This document shows positions 2,007-21,885 of a stretch of DNA of 29,346 nucleotides, piece after piece. Every line of letters starts with the position of its first letter. Within the stretch, counting starts at the first letter, position 1. The stretch is from a virus (Duplodnaviria; Heunggongvirae; Uroviricota; Caudoviricetes). Location of the stretch: positions 1-29,346 of IMG/VR virus record IMGVR_UViG_2541047790_000014. One strand, given 5' to 3'. A program made the position numbers and the translations under genes. The notes beneath the pieces were generated by a model. It was given only the letters and a program-made list of their open reading frames with translations. It was not told the origin of the DNA and did not search any database.

Positions 2007-4394
2007 TCATATTTTATTTAAGTTATTCTTTTTTAATGTCATCTCTAGTTCTTCGATACGTCTTTCTATATTATCAATTCTCTCCCAGCATTGCTGAATT
2101 GATTTAACAATAGGTGGGATAAACTCATCGTAACCGAGTGAGTAAACATCATCCCCACCATTTTTCAAGTGATGCTGTAGCCCACCGAACTCAACACCTA
2201 ATTTTTCACACAGTTTCAATACGTCCTGTGCAATAAACCAGTGATGGTATCGTTGACGTTTTTTACTGCCGTCAGGAGTTTTCTGCACTACTTCAAGATA
2301 TTTTTCTTCGACATTCTCAATAGCTGATATAGTAATTCCATCAACATCTCGTTCTACTTTTTTTGGTACAATTCTTGTCTTTTCAATAACATCAATATAA
2401 TCATCACGCATATCCCAGCGACCATCGACAGGACGAAGCCCAAGGATAAATTCAATCCCCAGCAAAGTATCTCGGATATCTGTTTTATCACGCGCATCAG
2501 ATCTGTTTTGCACAGTTCCATATACATACGTCGTTGTGGAAGAATTGCCAAGCTGCACCTGATTACTTCCAGACACTCTTGCATCATTGCCAACAGTTGT
2601 TGTGTTGGTAAGTGATGATGTGCTTTCCCCTGATTGAGTTAATCTACCTGAATTATGTCCAATAGCCGTGTTTAATGCGCCGGTTGTATTTGTGACAAGA
2701 GAGCCAGACCCAATTGCAACGTTACTGCTTCCCGATGTTGTTCCTTTTAATGCCTGCTGTCCAACCGCAACATTATTATCACCCGTTGCTGCTATAAGTG
2801 CCATGTGACCAATAGAAACGGTAAATGAACCTAGCGTTTGAGTTTCACCGCATGCACCATAACCAATTACAACAACATTATCTGTAATTGTTGACTCGGT
2901 TGCCGCTCCAGCACCAATAACAACGCTTTCATTCCCGGCAAGATTCTTGCGCATTGCGAACATTCCAATGCCAACATTATCATGCCCAGTCCCTGTACCT
3001 GCTGCCTCCGCAGCACCAAGACAGTTTCCCGCTCTGTAGCCAACCATGGTGTTATTTGAACCAATAGAGAAGTCTCCGGCAAAAGAGCCTACGTATACAC
3101 TATTAGACTGTGAGTAATCTCCAGGATTTCCATTCGCCCGATATCCTACTGCAACTGTATAAATAGTATCTGGAGCCTCAGCCATGGCCTCAAAGCCAAC
3201 TCCAACGTTATATCTACCGCCCTTAACTTTTTCTCCTGCACCAAGTCCGAAGAATGAGTTATAGCTCCCGGTTGTTAGCCACTCGCCAGCAACAGAACCT
3301 ACAGCAGTGTTTCCTGTTCCAGTACATCGATACAAAGTCAGGAAGCCAACTCCGGTATTATTATTTCCTGAAATATTACTCATCAATGATTTTGACCCAA
3401 TGGCAGTATTGTTAACACCATCGGTCAGATCCTGTAACGCTCGCGGGCCAAATGCTGTATTATCGTAACCCTTTGGCGCTGTTGTTGGATCTGGTAACTC
3501 CGGGGTTAGTTTTTCACCACCGCCACCATTGGCACAAAGATTGTAAGATCGAATAAATTCAGCCACTGGCCCAAGTTTTAAATAACCATTGGCAATATTA
3601 ATTCTGACACTTACATTAACTGAGCTACCAGGAGCTTCTATTGTCCTGTCATCAACCCAGGTAAAACTCTGTGGTATCCCGTCATAAGTTAATGTCACAT
3701 CTCCTTTATCATTATAATTATAGAACAATGTATAACGCTCATTTATAGATTCAGAACCTGATGATCCTCCTCTCCTCCACCACTCTGCATTATCAAAAAT
3801 AAGTAATCCTGGACCATAATATTTTCCCTTCTGACCCAAGATCATAGGAGTCGATAATCGCCACCTTCCCTCTGGAACATATACATCGATCCCAGTTCTT
3901 TCTGCGTCTTTAAACGATTCATCACATAATAAAACACCACCTTCAACAGCACCAAATCCACGAACATCACCATTATCTCTCCATCGAGCCATTTGCAACT
4001 CAGGATACTTCTTAGCGCCATCAATGTCTTCTAATTGGTCCCGCAGCTGATCAGGATCATACTTCAGTACATTAGGAAAATAGAACTGCTGAGCACCGTA
4101 AGCATCATATACAGCCATAGAATGGCCTTGCACAGTTACGAACTTGGCAATCTGTCCGTTATATACAGGGTAACCAGCAGCGTTAAGGATGATTGGTTGT
4201 GAAACAGGAATGTGAGAACCATCTTCACTCTCTACATAAACCTGAATCTGGTTTTCAGGATTTACCGGGTCAGTGTCAATTTTACCGATATAAATTTTGC
4301 CATTAGCTACGGCTTTAAAAGAGCGAGCCATAGTGAAGAGTTGCGATGGCATCCCAATTACAACATTTGGGGTTATATTAGGCATATTAGTCAT
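2007..4394 (-). CDS. Tailspike protein: P22-gp9-like head-binding N-terminal domain, repeat-rich receptor-binding domain, C-terminal intramolecular chaperone (peptidase S74-like)
   Basis: N-terminal stretch [25 protein letters not shown]...[13 protein letters not shown]...LKYDPDQ closely resembles the P22 tailspike head-binding domain. The centre has many NTAIG/NVGVG-type repeats. The C-terminus has the Ser-Lys dyad context SDARDK typical of self-cleaving fibre chaperone domains. Start placed at MTNMPN (4394); the ORF extends to 4478 but that extension lacks an RBS. Confidence 0.85.
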
Positions 4395-4730
4395 CCTGTT
4401 TGAAAACTTAGAAATTGAATAAAAAGGAATGACTGTAGACAAAGATGCAAGTGTTTTGAAAAATAATCTTCTATCCATTTTAAATCATGCAACACAAACA
4501 AAACGATTATTTTACAACGTGCACGAATCTTGATCAACAGGCATATATTTTAATTGCTGAATACGTCACTTAAAAATGACAAGTACTACTTTTATTCCTA
4601 TCGTCCATGATTTTAATTTTCAAATATTATTAAATAACAATTCCTATTTATAATATCTGTCATTTAATTTGCTCCAGATACAAGTAATCGCTGCAGCATG
4701 ACTGCAGTGATACATAATCAATCATACAAC

Positions 4731-4747
4731 AAGACCACCGTGGTCTT
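4731..4747. promoter_or_regulatory. Mnt-operator-like palindrome AAGACCACCGTGGTCTT
   Basis: Perfect 17-bp palindrome about 60 bp upstream of mnt, resembling the symmetric P22 mnt operator (GGTCCACGGTGGACC-type, from memory). A GATAAT -10-like hexamer lies about 20 bp downstream. Confidence 0.5.
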
Positions 4748-4809
4748 ATTGAGGATGCAACCAGCAGATAATAAGATGCCGATCCACTCACAAGAGCGAG
4801 GCATCAAGA

Positions 4810-5061
4810 ATGGGAAGAGATGACCCGCAATTTAATCTGCGGCTACCTTACGAATTAAAGGAAAAACTAAAACAGCGAGCCAAATCCAATGGCCGCTCTC
4901 TTAATTCAGAATTAGTTCAGATAGTGACTGATGCTGTATCAAAGCCATCCAAAATTTCAGGCTATCGAGACGATGCGGAACGCATCGCTGATGAGCAGTC
5001 CGAACTTGTTAAGAAGATGGTGTTTGATACGCTGAAGGATTTGTACAAAAAAACCACCTGA
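4810..5061 (+). CDS. mnt: Mnt repressor (ribbon-helix-helix, Arc/MetJ family)
   Basis: 83-aa protein MGRDDPQFNLRLPYELKEKLKQRAKSNGRSLNSELVQIV...ELVKKMVFDTLKDLYKKTT is near-identical to my recollection of P22 Mnt. RBS GAGG 8 nt upstream. Confidence 0.9.
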   Translation: MGRDDPQFNLRLPYELKEKLKQRAKSNGRSLNSELVQIVTDAVSKPSKISGYRDDAERIADEQSELVKKMVFDTLKDLYKKTT

Positions 5062-5078
5062 CGGTGGGTTAATTTTTG
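5051..5078 (+). terminator. Rho-independent terminator at the end of mnt
   Basis: Hairpin AACCACC-TGAC-GGTGGGTT followed by TTAATTTTTG. The mnt stop codon lies in the loop. Confidence 0.5.
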
Positions 5079-5080
5079 CA

Positions 5081-5125
5081 TTTACCTGGGCCATATTGAC
5101 TACTTATAAAATGAGATCAATATTT
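5081..5125 (+). promoter_or_regulatory. Putative sigma70 promoter for the downstream small gene
   Basis: TTGACT (5096-5101), 17-bp spacer, AATATT; an overlapping alternative is TTTACC-N18-TATAAA. About 40 bp upstream of the RBS of the 5161 gene. Confidence 0.35.
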
Positions 5126-5160
5126 AATCGCCCAATAACGGGTGTATGTTGAGGTATATC

Positions 5161-5406
5161 ATGGCGAAAAAACCAGGTGAAAACACAGGAAAAACGGCGG
5201 AATATACCAAGAGGTTGGCCCACGCGGCGGTAAGAAAGACAATTTTGCCACCGTCAAGGACAACGAAAGGCTTCCGCCAACAACAAAGCCAGGTCATGGC
5301 TGGGTATTGGATAAGCGAACTCCAGACAGCAAAAAGTAATACTCAAGCCGGGTCACTCCGGCTTTTTGATATGTCGCTCGCAGAACTCAACAAGCCTGCT
5401 CATTAA
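5161..5406 (+). CDS. Hypothetical small basic protein (accessory locus, sieA-equivalent position)
   Basis: 81-aa ORF starting MAKKPGENTGK with RBS GAGG at 5151-5154 and a promoter-like sequence upstream. The track ORF starts earlier at 5146 without an RBS. No recognisable family. Confidence 0.4.
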   Translation: MAKKPGENTGKTAEYTKRLAHAAVRKTILPPSRTTKGFRQQQSQVMAGYWISELQTAKSNTQAGSLRLFDMSLAELNKPAH

Positions 5407-5718
5407 GTAGCAGTAAGTCTCGTTGGCTCTTCCTGGTTCAACATCAACGCCGACCCTTGAGCAGATATCGAATGCCATGTGAGCGCACTCATGGGCAATA
5501 GTAGATAGTTTGCCATTGAACACGCCTATCACATGCAAAACACCATTCTCGCTGCTCATTGTATGAGACGCTCCGTTGGCGTCCGAGTCATGCACGTCAA
5601 CGCCAAGTTTTTGATGCAGGCGTTGCCATTCTGGAAAGTCTCTACAAAACACAATTGTACCGCTCTCAAAGAGCGGAACGAGCATCTTTGGTACGTTTCC
5701 AATGTTAACTTTTTTCAT
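5353..5718 (-). CDS. Hypothetical protein with HExxH motif (possible small zinc metallopeptidase-like protein)
   Basis: 121-aa ORF from MKKVNIGNV, containing HECAH. The longer track ORF (start 5871) has no RBS. The 3' end overlaps the convergent 5161 gene by 54 bp. Family not recognised. Confidence 0.4.
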   Translation of the reverse strand: MKKVNIGNVPKMLVPLFESGTIVFCRDFPEWQRLHQKLGVDVHDSDANGASHTMSSENGVLHVIGVFNGKLSTIAHECAHMAFDICSRVGVDVEPGRANETYCYLMSRLVEFCERHIKKPE

Positions 5719-5755
5719 GGTATCCTGCTCAAAACTAAGGAGGTTGGAGGTTGGT

Positions 5756-6085
5756 GTGCTTGAATGGTTTCTGTTGGCTGCATTAGTCGTTTCTGGTTGG
5801 GTGTATGAGTATCGAATGCACTCTCTAACAAAAAAAATAGGAATTCTAGAAAACGAATATTGGGCTCTCAAATCCTCACTGGAACGTGAGCAAGGAGACT
5901 TAAAAATCTATCTGTCTAGCATTGAGCGTTCTATAGAGAGCCTAGAGGATAAAGTTAATCGTATAAAGAATGAGGATATTCATGATATTAAGGACGATAT
6001 ATCCTTCTTAAAATCTTGGTTGAAAAATGTTGGTAAAATTGCCACATCAACACGAGATAAGCTCAATCCATCCATGGATGATTAA
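5756..6085 (+). CDS. Hypothetical membrane-anchored coiled-coil protein
   Basis: GTG start with GGAGG 5 nt upstream. N-terminal hydrophobic helix (FLLAALVVSGWVY) then a charged heptad-like region (LENEYWALKSSLEREQGDLKIYLSSIERSIESLEDKVNRIK). DNA is AT-rich relative to the flanking structural genes. Confidence 0.5.
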   Translation: MLEWFLLAALVVSGWVYEYRMHSLTKKIGILENEYWALKSSLEREQGDLKIYLSSIERSIESLEDKVNRIKNEDIHDIKDDISFLKSWLKNVGKIATSTRDKLNPSMDD

Positions 6086-8254
6086 TTACTCCTGTGCTAT
6101 TCCGCTTAGCGATGCCACAATTCCAGCCCTTGCTAAACGCTGGAAATCTTCGTTTCCTAGTGCATCGCGTATTGCTTTTACGGCGGCCTTATTTGCCATA
6201 AATCTGCGTTCAGCCGCCGCTAATGCGCCATCACTTGCCCCAACCTTAACTGCCTTTGTTGCCTCTTGAACAGCCTTTTCAATAGCGTAACGACCGCTTC
6301 TGGTTGCGGATAATTTCGCTATCGATCCTTTTGCTATTGCATCAATTGCTCCACCTGCAGCGCCACCCACTATTGCTCCAATAACACCACCTCCAGAGAA
6401 CCCTGCGATAGCGCCAGCGGTTGGAAAAGCGCCAGACAATACGCTCTCTAAAACTGGATGAAGGCCCTTCTCAAGAGTGCTAATGGCTGGCATAGAGCGC
6501 CCTGTCTGTTCAACATATCGAAGTGGCTTTGTTGCTGCTCGTGCAAGTTCTCCGTATGAACTTGTAATCCTGCCAAGTTCTGGAGAATATCGACTAATTG
6601 CCTTCACGTTTTGTGGGGTAAGAATAGTCGCGATATGCTTAATTCCAGCCCCTTCAGACTTACCTCCGCGCATCCCTTGCGATACCGTATCTTGCAATAT
6701 TGATGCAATTGCTGGCGCGCGTTCAGACTCAGGTAGGGCGCTTATTATTTTATGAAACTGACCTGTTCCACTTTTTGCTGAGCCCTGTAACGCCTTAGAG
6801 CCATTAGTTACCAACTGATCAGTTGCAAGGTCTCTACCAAACGCTGCTTCAGCCTGTTCTTGTGCTGTAAATCTTGCCTTTGACAGATCATTAGCTTTTT
6901 GCCAGTCATCAAGAAAACCGCCATTTTGAGCCATTATGCGCATATCTTCCGTTGCTGCATCACGAAGCTCAGCCATGCGCCTTGCCGTATTTGCCTCACC
7001 AGACCTTATATACTTCTGCTCAGCGTCAGCAAGTTTACTTCGCCATGCCTTCATGGCATCAAACGTGATTCCATTTTTACCAGTTTTAGCATAAGCAGAT
7101 GCGAATTGTTTCATCTCAGGAGTTAGCGGCATGCCAGCCAAAATATCACCCTGAATTGTAGCGTTCAGGTTTAACATTCTGGCCTTTGCGTCAGGCATCG
7201 TGGAGCGGACGCTATCCCATGCGGCCTTTTCTGAATTTTTCATTTTATCAATACTTGCCAAAACCCTTTGTTTTATGGCTGCACTTTTTTCTGATGCAGT
7301 TCCTGCTTCAGCCCCAAACTCATCCAATGCTGAGTTAAATTTCGACTCTATTTCACTGAATGCTTTGGTGTGTGCATCCTGTGTAATTCCGGGCTTTGAC
7401 GCCAGAATCCCCTCCGCCTGAGCAAGACCACGACTACCTGATCTCATGCCAGGAGTTAATGCGTTGATATCTATTCCAGCGGTATCTGCTGCTTTTGCTA
7501 TTTCGTCTGACACGTTAGCTGACTGTCTGGCAATAATCTCTCTTCCTGTACCAGACTTTGCCATTTTCGAAACATCAGCAGCGGAATTTATTGCCCCGCC
7601 ACCAAGAACTTGAGGTGATTTAGAGGTTAAGAGCCTTCCAGCCCCAGAAAGTATCCCCTGAGCACCAATATTGATACCACCGTTAATGGCAGCATTTTGT
7701 GCAAAGTCGCCCTCCTGATTTGCAGCATCAGCAAGAGAACCTGCAATCATGTTTCCTGCGGAACCGATATCTCCAGCGAGCTTTGCTGGCGCTCCAGCAG
7801 CTTTTGCCGCTGTGCCAATTGGCAGGAGATACCCACCAATTGTTTCACCGGCTTGCGCGTAAGGGTCTGTCGGTCGATCGACAGGGCGATAAACATCATC
7901 CAAAACCTTTGGGCCACCAAGCCCCTGGCTGATTGCATTAATCAGACTTGCGCCACCCTGTAACACGTCAAATGGTATGTTTACCAGACCACGACCAGCC
8001 TGTTCTGCAATTTGCCCTGCACTTTGACCACCAGTGAGCCAATCGCCAGCTTGTTGCATCAATGATGGTTCTTCTTTCTGCTGCTGAGGCGGAGGGTATG
8101 CTGCATAAAACTGATCTCTTGCTTCAGCCCATTTGTCACCAGCCTTAGGGGCAACAACCTCATCAAAATATTGCGCTTGAGCCTGTGCTTTCTGTTCTTC
8201 AGTTAACGCCTGATACTGTGGAGAAGCGATAACGTCTTTCCATGCTTTAGCCAT
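6086..8254 (-). CDS. Ejection (internal virion) protein, P22 gp16-like
   Basis: 722-aa Ala/Gly-rich protein at the position of P22 gene 16, immediately after the gp20-like gene with an ATGA start/stop overlap. Assigned by synteny and composition. Confidence 0.7.
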
Positions 8255-21447: not shown

Positions 21448-21885
21448 TCATCGAAGGCATTGCGTCCTGATGTACTCCTGCAGGTAGTTAACCTGCGCGG
21501 TTATCCTGTCGATTCCACTTCGGAGACGGTAATAATTGAGTTCAGCATCTGCTGTAAGTCTTGGGCTTTCTCCATCGCCCATGCTGCTGGATCCGGTCGT
21601 TGACTTTGTACAGGTGGCGGCGACTTGCAGGCGCTTACGCCCAGCAGAAACATCAGCACGGAGACTTTCGATAGTCGCGTTAGCATCAGCAAGTTCCTTT
21701 GTATATCTTGCGTCGAGTTCTGCTACATCACGTTGACGCTTCTGCATGTCAGCGATGATGGATGTGGCTTTGTCGCGCTGGGCTTTGTAGGCGATGGCGT
21801 TATCCCGGTAATGATTAACAGCCCATGACAGGCAGACGATGATGCAGATAACCAGAGCGGAGATAATCGCGGTGACTCTGCTCAT
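21448..21885 (-). CDS. Rz: Spanin, inner-membrane subunit (Rz-like)
   Basis: [39 protein letters not shown] matches my recollection of lambda Rz; N-terminal membrane anchor and coiled-coil; ATGA overlap with R. Confidence 0.85.
21501..21692 (-). CDS. Rz1: Spanin, outer-membrane lipoprotein subunit (Rz1-like), embedded in the +1 frame of Rz
   Basis: Embedded ORF with lipobox-like LLGVSAC and a Pro-rich mature region ([16 protein letters not shown]). The exact start Met is uncertain. Confidence 0.6.

Follow-up and report, generated by a model that had tools for sequence, protein, structure and literature searches.

A 1-kb accessory region of a P22-like Escherichia coli prophage as an apparent HK620-type ant moron, with hkcB in the sieA slot

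In P22-like phages, the DNA between gene 16 and gene 9 includes an accessory region that has been named the "ant moron" and described as being "in a state of rapid flux," with ten types distinguished in 16 genomes; hkcC, 59a, and hkcB have been listed among its genes without known function (Villafane 2008, PMC2629481). For sieA, the exclusion gene of P22, 85 bp of upstream DNA has been reported to be enough for function (PMC10883804). Here, we compare with these systems a viral stretch of 29,346 nucleotides (nt) (positions 1 to 29,346 of the IMG/VR record IMGVR_UViG_2541047790_000014, hereafter the window) and, in particular, the three small open reading frames (ORFs) located at 5079 to 6085, between mnt and a gene 16 homologue. 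A preliminary description of this DNA had taken them for three unrecognized genes, encoding a basic 81-amino-acid (aa) protein, a convergent 121-aa protein with an HECAH sequence, and a divergent, membrane-anchored coiled-coil protein, and had suggested that they form one AT-rich cassette acquired horizontally.

Judging from its sequence, this 1 kb of a P22-like Escherichia coli prophage carries the hypervariable ant moron (the immI-adjacent accessory region) in its HK620-type version, and it consists of two independent units, hkcC with orf59a on the one hand and hkcB on the other, rather than of a single cassette. Combined with the proposal that hkcB is a functional analogue of SieA, this is the explanation that we consider probable overall. 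The three genes are already catalogued and annotated genes of a published hypervariable region, and since they are known as sequence features the discovery value is low, even if some points may still be useful for guiding experiments. What is new here is the diagnosis of orf59a as a pseudogene, the gluzincin signature of hkcC together with the size of its family, and the architecture of the cassette slot with a census of its cargo.

Gene content of the region

The window spans that part of a P22-like (Lederbergvirus) E. coli prophage in which the late and accessory genes lie, in reversed reading direction: the tailspike gene (2007 to 4478, minus strand), mnt (4810 to 5061, plus strand), the three small ORFs, and then, again on the minus strand, genes 16, 20, and 7; gp20 and gp7 were recognized by Pfam matches upstream of the region. 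By megablast, positions 5031 to 6090 share 96.8% DNA identity with coliphage HK620 (AF335538), whose record labels the three ORFs HkcD ("may encode," similar to P22 orf59a), hkcC, and hkcB and marks two terminators. P22, in turn, is 97% identical to positions 4963 to 5747 and has orf59a and hkcC alongside sieA. The position and the content of the region are those of the ant moron: gp16 (6086 to 8254) and the tailspike lie on either side, the presence of mnt was confirmed, and hkcC, orf59a, and hkcB were identified by 97% identity to HK620 and P22. The ORFs are not unrecognized, all three being annotated in the HK620 and P22 records and discussed in PMC2629481. They do lie where the preliminary description had placed them, in the convergent and divergent orientations it gave, but hkcC is not an independent convergent unit, since it is co-oriented with the late operon.

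The profile searches and structure predictions that had been recommended gave for hkcC a confident model matching phage proteins of SprT-like fold and, in Pfam and PHROG scans, no match of any of the three proteins to virion families; the 81-aa protein turned out not to be conserved. The view of the DNA between gene 16 and mnt as non-structural accessory DNA was supported. Scans of the three proteins against Pfam, NCBIfam, and PADLOC returned no significant family apart from PHROGs of unknown function, and the PADLOC-DB scan gave no match for hkcC, orf59a, or the ORF of SE1 described below. In the literature on hkcB, hkcC, orf59a, and phage SprT-like proteases, we did not find a functional study. 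The P22 ORFan pid, considered as a candidate for this place, was rejected, as it maps between orf25 and orf80.

The idea that the three genes constitute one horizontally acquired, AT-rich defense or exclusion moron, with an HExxH effector and a basic 81-aa partner, now appears very improbable. The genes are compact, adjacent, and non-structural, and hkcC and orf59a travel together in several unrelated phage backbones, but this pair stands beside at least 12 alternative neighbors, and beside sieA in P22, while hkcB is found without hkcC or orf59a in CUS-3 and epsilon34. Furthermore, the AT-richness is limited to hkcB, with a GC content of 36.7% (in the lowest 3% of 330-bp windows), whereas hkcC (47.0%) and orf59a (48.6%) match the mean of the window (47.9%); the 81-aa protein is a frameshift product, as discussed below, and a PADLOC match is lacking. 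hkcB does look like a swapped-in cargo; hkcC and orf59a behave as a conserved and often paired unit. The equivalence of position with sieA is exact for hkcB and does not extend to the other two genes, since P22 has both of them besides sieA.

The sieA slot and its cargo hkcB

The two units adjoin at a conserved divergent junction (5716 to 5758), which comprises the start of hkcC (CAT), an extended −10-like sequence, TGgTATCCT (5718 to 5726), a Shine-Dalgarno sequence, and the GTG start codon of the slot gene. The putative PsieA promoter of P22 maps to approximately 5688 to 5718, inside the first hkcC codons, a sequence that the window retains. Aligned with P22 and SE1, the window shows unbroken similarity over hkcC, a 30-nt spacer, the Shine-Dalgarno sequence, and the GTG codon, and this similarity breaks off at the first codons of the respective slot gene (hkcB, sieA, or the SE1 ORF). 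In the window, this junction includes a 7-bp tandem duplication of GGAGGTT (5739 to 5752), by which the original spacing between Shine-Dalgarno sequence and GTG is kept and a second Shine-Dalgarno copy is added; among 114 loci, it occurs in the window lineage only (ZH063 and one IMG/VR contig).

The loci gathered with the hkcC alignment comprised 11 genome loci and 80 viral loci from IMG/VR. In the latter, which are prophages with an hkcC 98 to 100% identical, the start of the divergent gene and the ATG of hkcC are 30 nt apart (rarely 34 nt), and the products of this gene are of at least 12 unrelated kinds, 11 of them with a transmembrane (TM) segment, a signal peptide, or a lipobox. The most frequent cargo is a 160-aa lipoprotein (18 loci), followed by SieA type A (13 loci), a secreted 128-aa protein (12 loci), a 75-aa protein with two TM segments (8 loci), hkcB (7 loci), a TM/coiled-coil protein of the SE1 type (6 loci), a TM protein of 105 aa (5 loci), and a 62-aa protein with two TM segments (4 loci); a YobH-like secreted protein of 68 aa, a secreted 98-aa protein, and a TM protein of 148 aa occur in 2 loci each, and an apparently soluble 139-aa protein occurs in 1 locus. 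A 36-nt core, CATGGTATCCTGCNCAAAACTAAGGAGGTTGGTGTG, is exact in 44 loci with at least 10 cargo types. It is exact in epsilon34 too, where the leftward gene, divergent from hkcB, encodes a 139-aa lipoprotein (MKRIISVVAGVIMLSGC...; L006, 2960 to 3379) in place of hkcC and uses the CAT at which hkcC begins in other phages, so both sides of the 36-nt junction are exchangeable.

Taken together, the census and the shared junction indicate that hkcB is one interchangeable cargo of the sieA slot. The slot could be regarded as a natural library of at least 12 unrelated small envelope proteins behind one conserved promoter, RBS (ribosome-binding site), and start codon, in which only SieA has a known function. 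As for SE1 (NC_011802, L003), the slot is taken by an unannotated 109-aa ORF (3087 to 3416; VLEIIVFVLGIACCALYAELVALKKK...), whose product has a TM segment at the N terminus and a coiled coil, and ORFs of this type were also found in six IMG/VR loci (e.g., L046 and L048). Its size and architecture are those of hkcB; homology between the two was rejected, with an hhalign probability of 4%.

hkcB (5756 to 6085, plus strand) encodes 109 aa and matches PHROG 5962 (E = 4.8e−61), and its homologues set the start at GTG 5756. The preliminary description of a membrane-anchored coiled-coil protein with a strong RBS agrees with what we found, as far as predicted topology goes: the RBS was confirmed, and the protein is predicted to have an N-terminal TM segment (residues ~1 to 17), a long helix or coiled coil, and a conserved C-terminal motif. 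In particular, residues 1 to 17 are hydrophobic, with no positive charge before them and three after, a pattern that weakly favors an N-out/C-in topology, and one unbroken helix is predicted for residues 2 to 103. The most conserved part is the C-terminal R69...ED.H...W88.KNVG.I..STR.K.N.S (residues 69 to 106, positions 5960 to 6073). The family is narrow, being represented in HK620 and vB_EcoP-611R6 and, with a 50%-identical subtype, in CUS-3, epsilon34 (gene 14), and SEN22; the ORF length is kept at 107 to 109 aa even between subtypes that are only 50% identical, and the ratio of nonsynonymous to synonymous substitution rates (dN/dS) among alleles, calculated from few changes, is 0.1 to 0.5. 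hkcB DNA is present in 117 of 5426 complete E. coli genomes (~2%), and the hkcB of the window is 100% identical to that of chromosomal prophages of human E. coli isolates, e.g., ZH063.

Where hkcB lies, the signals for its expression, and its predicted membrane anchor would make a prophage-expressed block at the envelope, comparable to SieA, its most likely role by analogy. The unit formed by hkcB as slot cargo has the upstream sequence (putative PsieA), Shine-Dalgarno sequence, and GTG codon of P22 sieA; the protein would be expressed from the prophage, its N-terminal helix would insert in the inner membrane, and its long helix would oligomerize, so that the 40 conserved C-terminal residues could interfere with an envelope step of infection. 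The delivery of P22-like phage DNA via the gp16/gp20 conduit would be the most likely target, with hkcB acting as a functional analogue, and not a homologue, of SieA. An exclusion role is plausible on these analogies. The more specific proposal that hkcB is a new exclusion protein unrelated to SieA is put forward only tentatively; if true, it would be a moderately interesting result, and hkcB is an easy candidate for the existing assays of Leavitt et al.

A connection with the ejection apparatus may also be considered. hkcB was seen only with gp16 of the HK620/CUS-3/epsilon34 class (708 to 722 aa, with 72 to 77% mutual identity and unlike P22 gp16 past the N-terminal region), and the stop codons of the two genes always abut, with a 0-nt gap. 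This association may be mere physical linkage. When cargo and gp16 were compared among the loci, a one-to-one match of the hkcB subtype or of the cargo type with the gp16 type was rejected. In the course of this comparison, we noticed that the gp16 proteins of CUS-3 (L005, 3822 to 5981) and HK620 (L001, 3549 to 5717) are 76.7% identical over their full length by blastp, whereas they have been given as only 26% identical, a value used to explain the different SieA sensitivities of the two phages (Leavitt et al. 2024, PMC10883804). If the figure of 76.7% is right, what allows HK620 to escape SieA in part must be sought among the 23% of positions at which the two proteins differ.

Several points weigh against exclusion by hkcB. 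Family-level searches lend it no support, the scans against PADLOC and Pfam having returned only insignificant coiled-coil noise (PADLOC E ≥ 0.0019, 14 to 16 bits). Different from SieA, hkcB has no multi-pass topology, no FxRYPxEAxxFNK motif, and no sequence similarity: a tblastn search with P22 SieA matched sieA loci only and never hkcB loci, and the search for hkcB homologues returned no SieA. Sharing the slot with sieA is no proof of a shared function, as the slot also holds secreted proteins and lipoproteins, which may be lysogenic-conversion factors. HK620-class gp16 is found with other cargos as well, and one gp16 cluster carries four of them. Finally, CUS-3 is fully sensitive to SieA and HK620 escapes it partially (PMC10883804); since CUS-3 has hkcB, this gene is not simply a substitute in SieA-escaping lineages.

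The occurrence in the slot of lipoproteins, secreted proteins, and a YobH-like protein, without a link to injection, is indeed what would be expected if hkcB were a prophage-expressed membrane protein with a role in lysogenic conversion or host physiology (e.g., envelope stress or the exclusion of non-P22-like phages, colicins, or conjugation) that does not block P22-like injection. The independent shuffling of cargo and gp16 types and the lack of homology between hkcB and known Sie proteins in the Pfam, PHROG, and PADLOC scans speak in the same sense. However, SieA is the sole characterized occupant of the slot, and hkcB is confined to P22-like prophages, where it always abuts gene 16; we regard such a role as rather unlikely, although it deserves to be kept in mind.

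The abutting stop codons of hkcB and gene 16, along with the failure to find an intrinsic terminator on the plus strand for more than 1.3 kb after hkcB, raise the question of whether the product of the locus could be an RNA. A prophage transcript antisense to the 3' end of gene 16 would then silence late transcription products of a homologous phage attempting superinfection. The model for this is STnc6030 of the P22-like prophage BTP1, an immunity-conferring antisense RNA that is longer than 700 nt and maps to the corresponding genomic position (PMC7067206). STnc6030, however, holds no ORF of more than 60 aa (PMC7067206), whereas hkcB is kept as a protein, with its length of 107 to 109 aa, its C-terminal peptide motif, and a dN/dS below 1, which makes an RNA product an improbable explanation of the locus, even though the antisense and protein functions are not mutually exclusive. 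As to a lysis accessory, the predicted N-terminal TM segment and coiled coil, the latter being periplasmic in this case, recall the Rz architecture of an i-spanin, and there were marginal matches to Rz-like spanins and LysB (E~0.08). Nevertheless, the window has its own Rz (PF03245, 2.9e−36, 21448 to 21885) and a holin in the lysis cassette, hkcB opposes the late operon, the charges flanking the TM segment favor a cytoplasmic C terminus, and an o-spanin ORF with a lipobox is neither embedded in hkcB nor adjacent to it. A spanin role is hardly credible, and it was rejected in view of the Rz and holin of the window. A block at the envelope thus remains the role that we prefer for hkcB.

hkcC and orf59a

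The 121-aa HECAH protein is hkcC (5353 to 5718, minus strand, on the sense strand of the late operon), which matches PHROG 1365, of unknown function (E = 1.7e−39); its motif, as reported, is real and proved invariant in relatives. The HECAH codons (H76, E77, C78, A79, and H80) lie at 5479 to 5493 and that of E100, the candidate third zinc ligand, at 5419 to 5421, both on the minus strand. Among 94 diverse relatives, with identities down to ~25%, H76, E77, H80, and E100 were the sole invariant columns. The resulting signature is HExxH-x19-E, with E100 20 residues past H80, the spacing of thermolysin-type gluzincins. The HExxH of hkcC is a true, conserved signature of the zinc-peptidase type.

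The AlphaFold2 (AF2) model of hkcC (pLDDT 89, pTM 0.83) presents the topology beta-beta-alpha-beta-beta-alpha(HExxH)-alpha(E), with the HExxH on helix 71 to 88 and E100 as the first residue of helix 100 to 116. In BFVD, a database of predicted viral structures, 26 hits at E ≤ 1e−3 and with TM scores up to 0.82 were obtained in Pseudomonas, Ralstonia, Erwinia, Salmonella, Eggerthella, Acinetobacter, and crAss-like phages; the few named ones were "SprT-like" and "Metalloprotease," with "IrrE" lower in the list. Foldseek against the PDB placed SPRTN on top, the similarity to solved structures being weak. Searched by sequence against the PDB, the profile of the 94-member alignment matched only zinc peptidases, and these marginally (astacin and myroilysin, E~0.04 or weaker), while a narrower hkcC alignment found nothing. 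The Pfam scan of hkcC gave no hit at E ≤ 1, and only 2 of the 94 relatives matched the SprT-like model (PF10263), with a best E value of 1e−4; the only listed score (P0092, 15.7 bits) is below the threshold of 25.6.

Thus, the invariant HExxH...E, the confident model, and the structure and profile matches place hkcC in the zincin superfamily, as a probable, so far unclassified mini-gluzincin of SprT-like fold for which zinc binding and catalysis may be inferred. A profile search of 1.84 billion representatives returned 517 clusters at 50% identity (E ≤ 1e−3), nearly all of stand-alone proteins of 110 to 140 aa, so hkcC would define a large predicted family of phage mini-zincins with an invariant HExxH...E, outside the Pfam models. 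Like SPRTN, SprT, minigluzincins, and ImmA/IrrE, that is, the SprT-like and minimal gluzincins, hkcC is small and has an N-terminal beta-sheet with a backing helix, the HExxH on the active-site helix, and an invariant Glu on the next helix; different from them, it falls below the Pfam models and has no DNA-binding or other accessory domain. In SprT and SPRTN the third ligand is a His, whereas the candidate in hkcC is a Glu.

hkcC shares its strand with genes 16 and 9, and the tailspike gene is reached by late transcripts that traverse the ant moron (PMC2629481). Being sense to this transcript, hkcC is presumably made late, in lytic growth. We propose that it would be a cytoplasmic, minimal zinc-metallopeptidase-like protein of ~120 aa acting on one specific protein substrate. 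It should be considered, against this proposal, that the best promoter-like match of the region, TTGAGA-17-TAGAAT (10/12; 5871 to 5843, minus strand), located inside hkcB ~125 nt upstream of the hkcC ATG, could drive hkcC independently of late transcription, in hkcB-carrying phages only.

The recurrence of hkcC and orf59a near ant/pRha/Bro-N and Arc-family genes, including in the tail operon of a Klebsiella siphovirus prophage, and the weak IrrE/Peptidase_M78 similarities of hkcC could point instead to a regulatory function within the immI circuitry, in which hkcC, as an ImmA/IrrE-like protease or a non-catalytic zinc-binding regulator, would act on Mnt, Arc, C2, or the antirepressor. However, more distant relatives are found in unrelated contexts, such as the interval between lysis genes and terminase and early-gene clusters, decades of P22 immI genetics have defined mnt, arc, ant, and sar only (PMC2629481), and the window keeps hkcC yet has no arc or ant. 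We consider this function unlikely in comparison with that of a late metallopeptidase-like protein.

With regard to orf59a (HkcD), the intact gene encodes 59 aa (MAKKPGENTGKNGGIYQEVGPRGG...), a small basic protein probably of the YjzC family, and ends at a TAA corresponding to 5337 to 5339, directly before a hairpin at 5345 to 5364. In the window, the gene (5161 to 5339, plus strand) is a pseudogene, owing to the deletion of a single base in an A-run, which counts five A's (A5) at 5190 to 5194 against six in the aligned HK620, P22, and SE1. The 81-aa ORF (5161 to 5406, plus strand) is the frameshifted read-through of this gene: it shares only the first 11 residues with the conserved protein, is out of frame after codon 11, passes through the hairpin, and overlaps hkcC by 54 bp. 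The hairpin is a bidirectional intrinsic terminator common to orf59a and hkcC (tORF59A of HK620, t mnt of P22) and holds the stop codon of hkcC (5353 to 5355); a transcript stopping there would be without the stop codon of the 81-aa ORF. The preliminary description was right about the basic character of this ORF, its RBS, and a promoter-like site (TTGACT-17-AATATT, 5096 to 5124, plus strand), which matches the consensus at 9/12 positions, a match to consensus only, and is invariant in HK620, P22, and SE1. It is the protein itself that did not hold up, since it is a frameshift artifact of the orf59a pseudogene and should not be taken for a gene product.

Of the P22-type copies of orf59a, 73 were compared: 68 are intact, 2, of HK620, are interrupted by a stop at codon 18, and the A5 frameshift is found in 3, namely, those of the window, of ZH063, and of one IMG/VR contig. 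Exact matches to the A5 allele occur in 16 complete E. coli genomes, all without a PGAP annotation at this place; in ~100 other genomes the extra A is present and a hypothetical protein is annotated; a 121-nt stretch of orf59a is 100% identical in ZH063, SaT040, and an O25:H4 strain. Its identity in 16 complete genomes indicates that the mutation is real and clonally inherited and makes a sequencing error unlikely. A programmed frameshift is also unlikely in our judgment, since an A-run of 5 to 6 nt is too short and the 59-aa frame is read without any shift in every other lineage. In HK620 (L001, 2630 to 2809), the in-frame stop at codon 18 is independent of the frameshift of the window, so two separate inactivations of orf59a have taken place among the E. 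coli phages that carry hkcB. It is therefore advisable that annotators avoid calling the 81-aa ORF, which reflects a lineage-specific pseudogene, present also in an O25:H4 strain.

Elsewhere, orf59a is a real gene conserved at the protein level, as its relatives in Klebsiella, Xenorhabdus, Proteus, Pasteurellaceae, and metagenomes share the pattern PGxxxGKxGGIYxExGPRGG...PPT...W...TPxSKK. P22 orf59a matches the YjzC family (PF14168) with E = 0.006 over nearly the whole model (positions 8 to 54 of 55) but, at 17.4 bits, below the gathering score of 25; distant relatives reach PF14168, and close ones are named "YjzC family protein" in UniRef. The copy of the window, different from the intact gene, is frameshifted.

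hkcC and orf59a have the same convergent layout, 14 to 30 bp apart, across P22-like podoviruses, and the convergent pair also occurs in a Klebsiella oxytoca siphovirus prophage, Xenorhabdus, Proteus, Pasteurellaceae, and metagenomic contigs, with hkcC identities down to 43%. They would thus form a unit converging on a common bidirectional terminator, whose orf59a member would be non-functional in this prophage lineage. The pairing is not obligate, given the hkcC relatives at 38 to 55% identity without orf59a (L016 to L023) and the solitary orf59a relatives at 68 to 75% identity. In the K. oxytoca prophage (L010/L011, 5400 to 6600), the pair lies within a siphovirus tail operon, with tail chaperone genes on one side and the tape-measure gene on the other; in L011, a pRha-domain antirepressor-like gene is found upstream of the pair, and beyond the tape-measure gene there are Arc-family genes and a SNIPE/T5orf172 gene. 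This looks like an ant moron-type block within a wholly different virion module.

It is possible to hypothesize a wider picture, doubtful as a whole, in which hkcB represents a new, SieA-unrelated class of exclusion proteins, single-pass and coiled-coil in the inner membrane, whose conserved C-terminal 40 residues would jam the HK620/CUS-3-class gp16/gp20 conduit, the 36-nt CAT...GTG junction is a dedicated exchange site by which P22-like prophages swap at least 12 unrelated envelope "shield" proteins under one promoter, and hkcC is a late mini-metalloprotease with a counter-defense or regulatory substrate.

Flanking features and comparison with described systems

On the left, the region is bordered by mnt (4810 to 5061, plus strand), a maintenance repressor of the Arc/Mnt family (Pfam Arc, 2.8e−22; Repressor_Mnt, 2.2e−18), which ends at a bidirectional terminator-like hairpin (5054 to 5067; CCACCTGACGGTGG between an A-run and a T-run) corresponding to tMNT of the HK620 record. 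Between the tailspike gene and mnt there is a noncoding, AT-rich gap of 331 bp (4479 to 4809; 33.5% GC), where P22 has arc, sar, and ant; the ant moron being of a "mnt-only" type, Mnt is left without an antirepressor gene to repress. The longest ORF of the tailspike gene (2007 to 4478) encodes 823 aa and starts 31 codons before the PGAP start in the identical gene of ZH063 (792 aa). By eye, the ~130 C-terminal residues of the tailspike (...GLRPV...) resemble the autoproteolytic intramolecular-chaperone domain of endosialidase-type tailspikes. On the right, gene 16 (6086 to 8254, minus strand) encodes an HK620-class ejection protein of 722 aa, 96.7% identical to HK620 gp16, and its stop codon abuts that of hkcB.

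The closest system is HK620, in which hkcB, hkcC, and HkcD have the same order, orientation, terminators, and abutment with gene 16 as in the window. The two differ in the lesion of orf59a (a stop at codon 18 in HK620, a 1-bp deletion in the window), in the 7-bp RBS duplication of the window, and in mnt, which is only a remnant in HK620 and intact in the window. P22 has orf59a and hkcC in common with the window, at 97% identity. With respect to the types of ant moron distinguished previously (Villafane 2008, PMC2629481), the region likewise lies between homologues of gene 16 and gene 9 and would be described as "mnt-only plus hkcC/59a/hkcB"; to that description, our analysis adds the exact junction at the start codon, the at least 12 cargos of the slot, and the assignment of fold and motif for hkcC.

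As far as immunity functions are concerned, the prophage transcript STnc6030 of BTP1, which arises where gene 16 and the tailspike gene meet, is antisense to late genes and gives superinfection immunity (Owen et al. 2020, PMC7067206); it is non-coding, whereas hkcB is a conserved ORF. P22 SieA and hkcB have in common the slot, the upstream 85 bp with the putative PsieA, the RBS, and the GTG start, and the position of hkcB, divergent from hkcC and convergent on gene 16 behind the putative PsieA, is that of sieA. Like sieA, hkcB opposes the late operon, adjoins the 3' end of gene 16, and encodes a predicted inner-membrane protein. However, SieA is a multi-pass protein of 164 aa, whereas hkcB, with 109 aa, is predicted to have one TM segment followed by a coiled coil.

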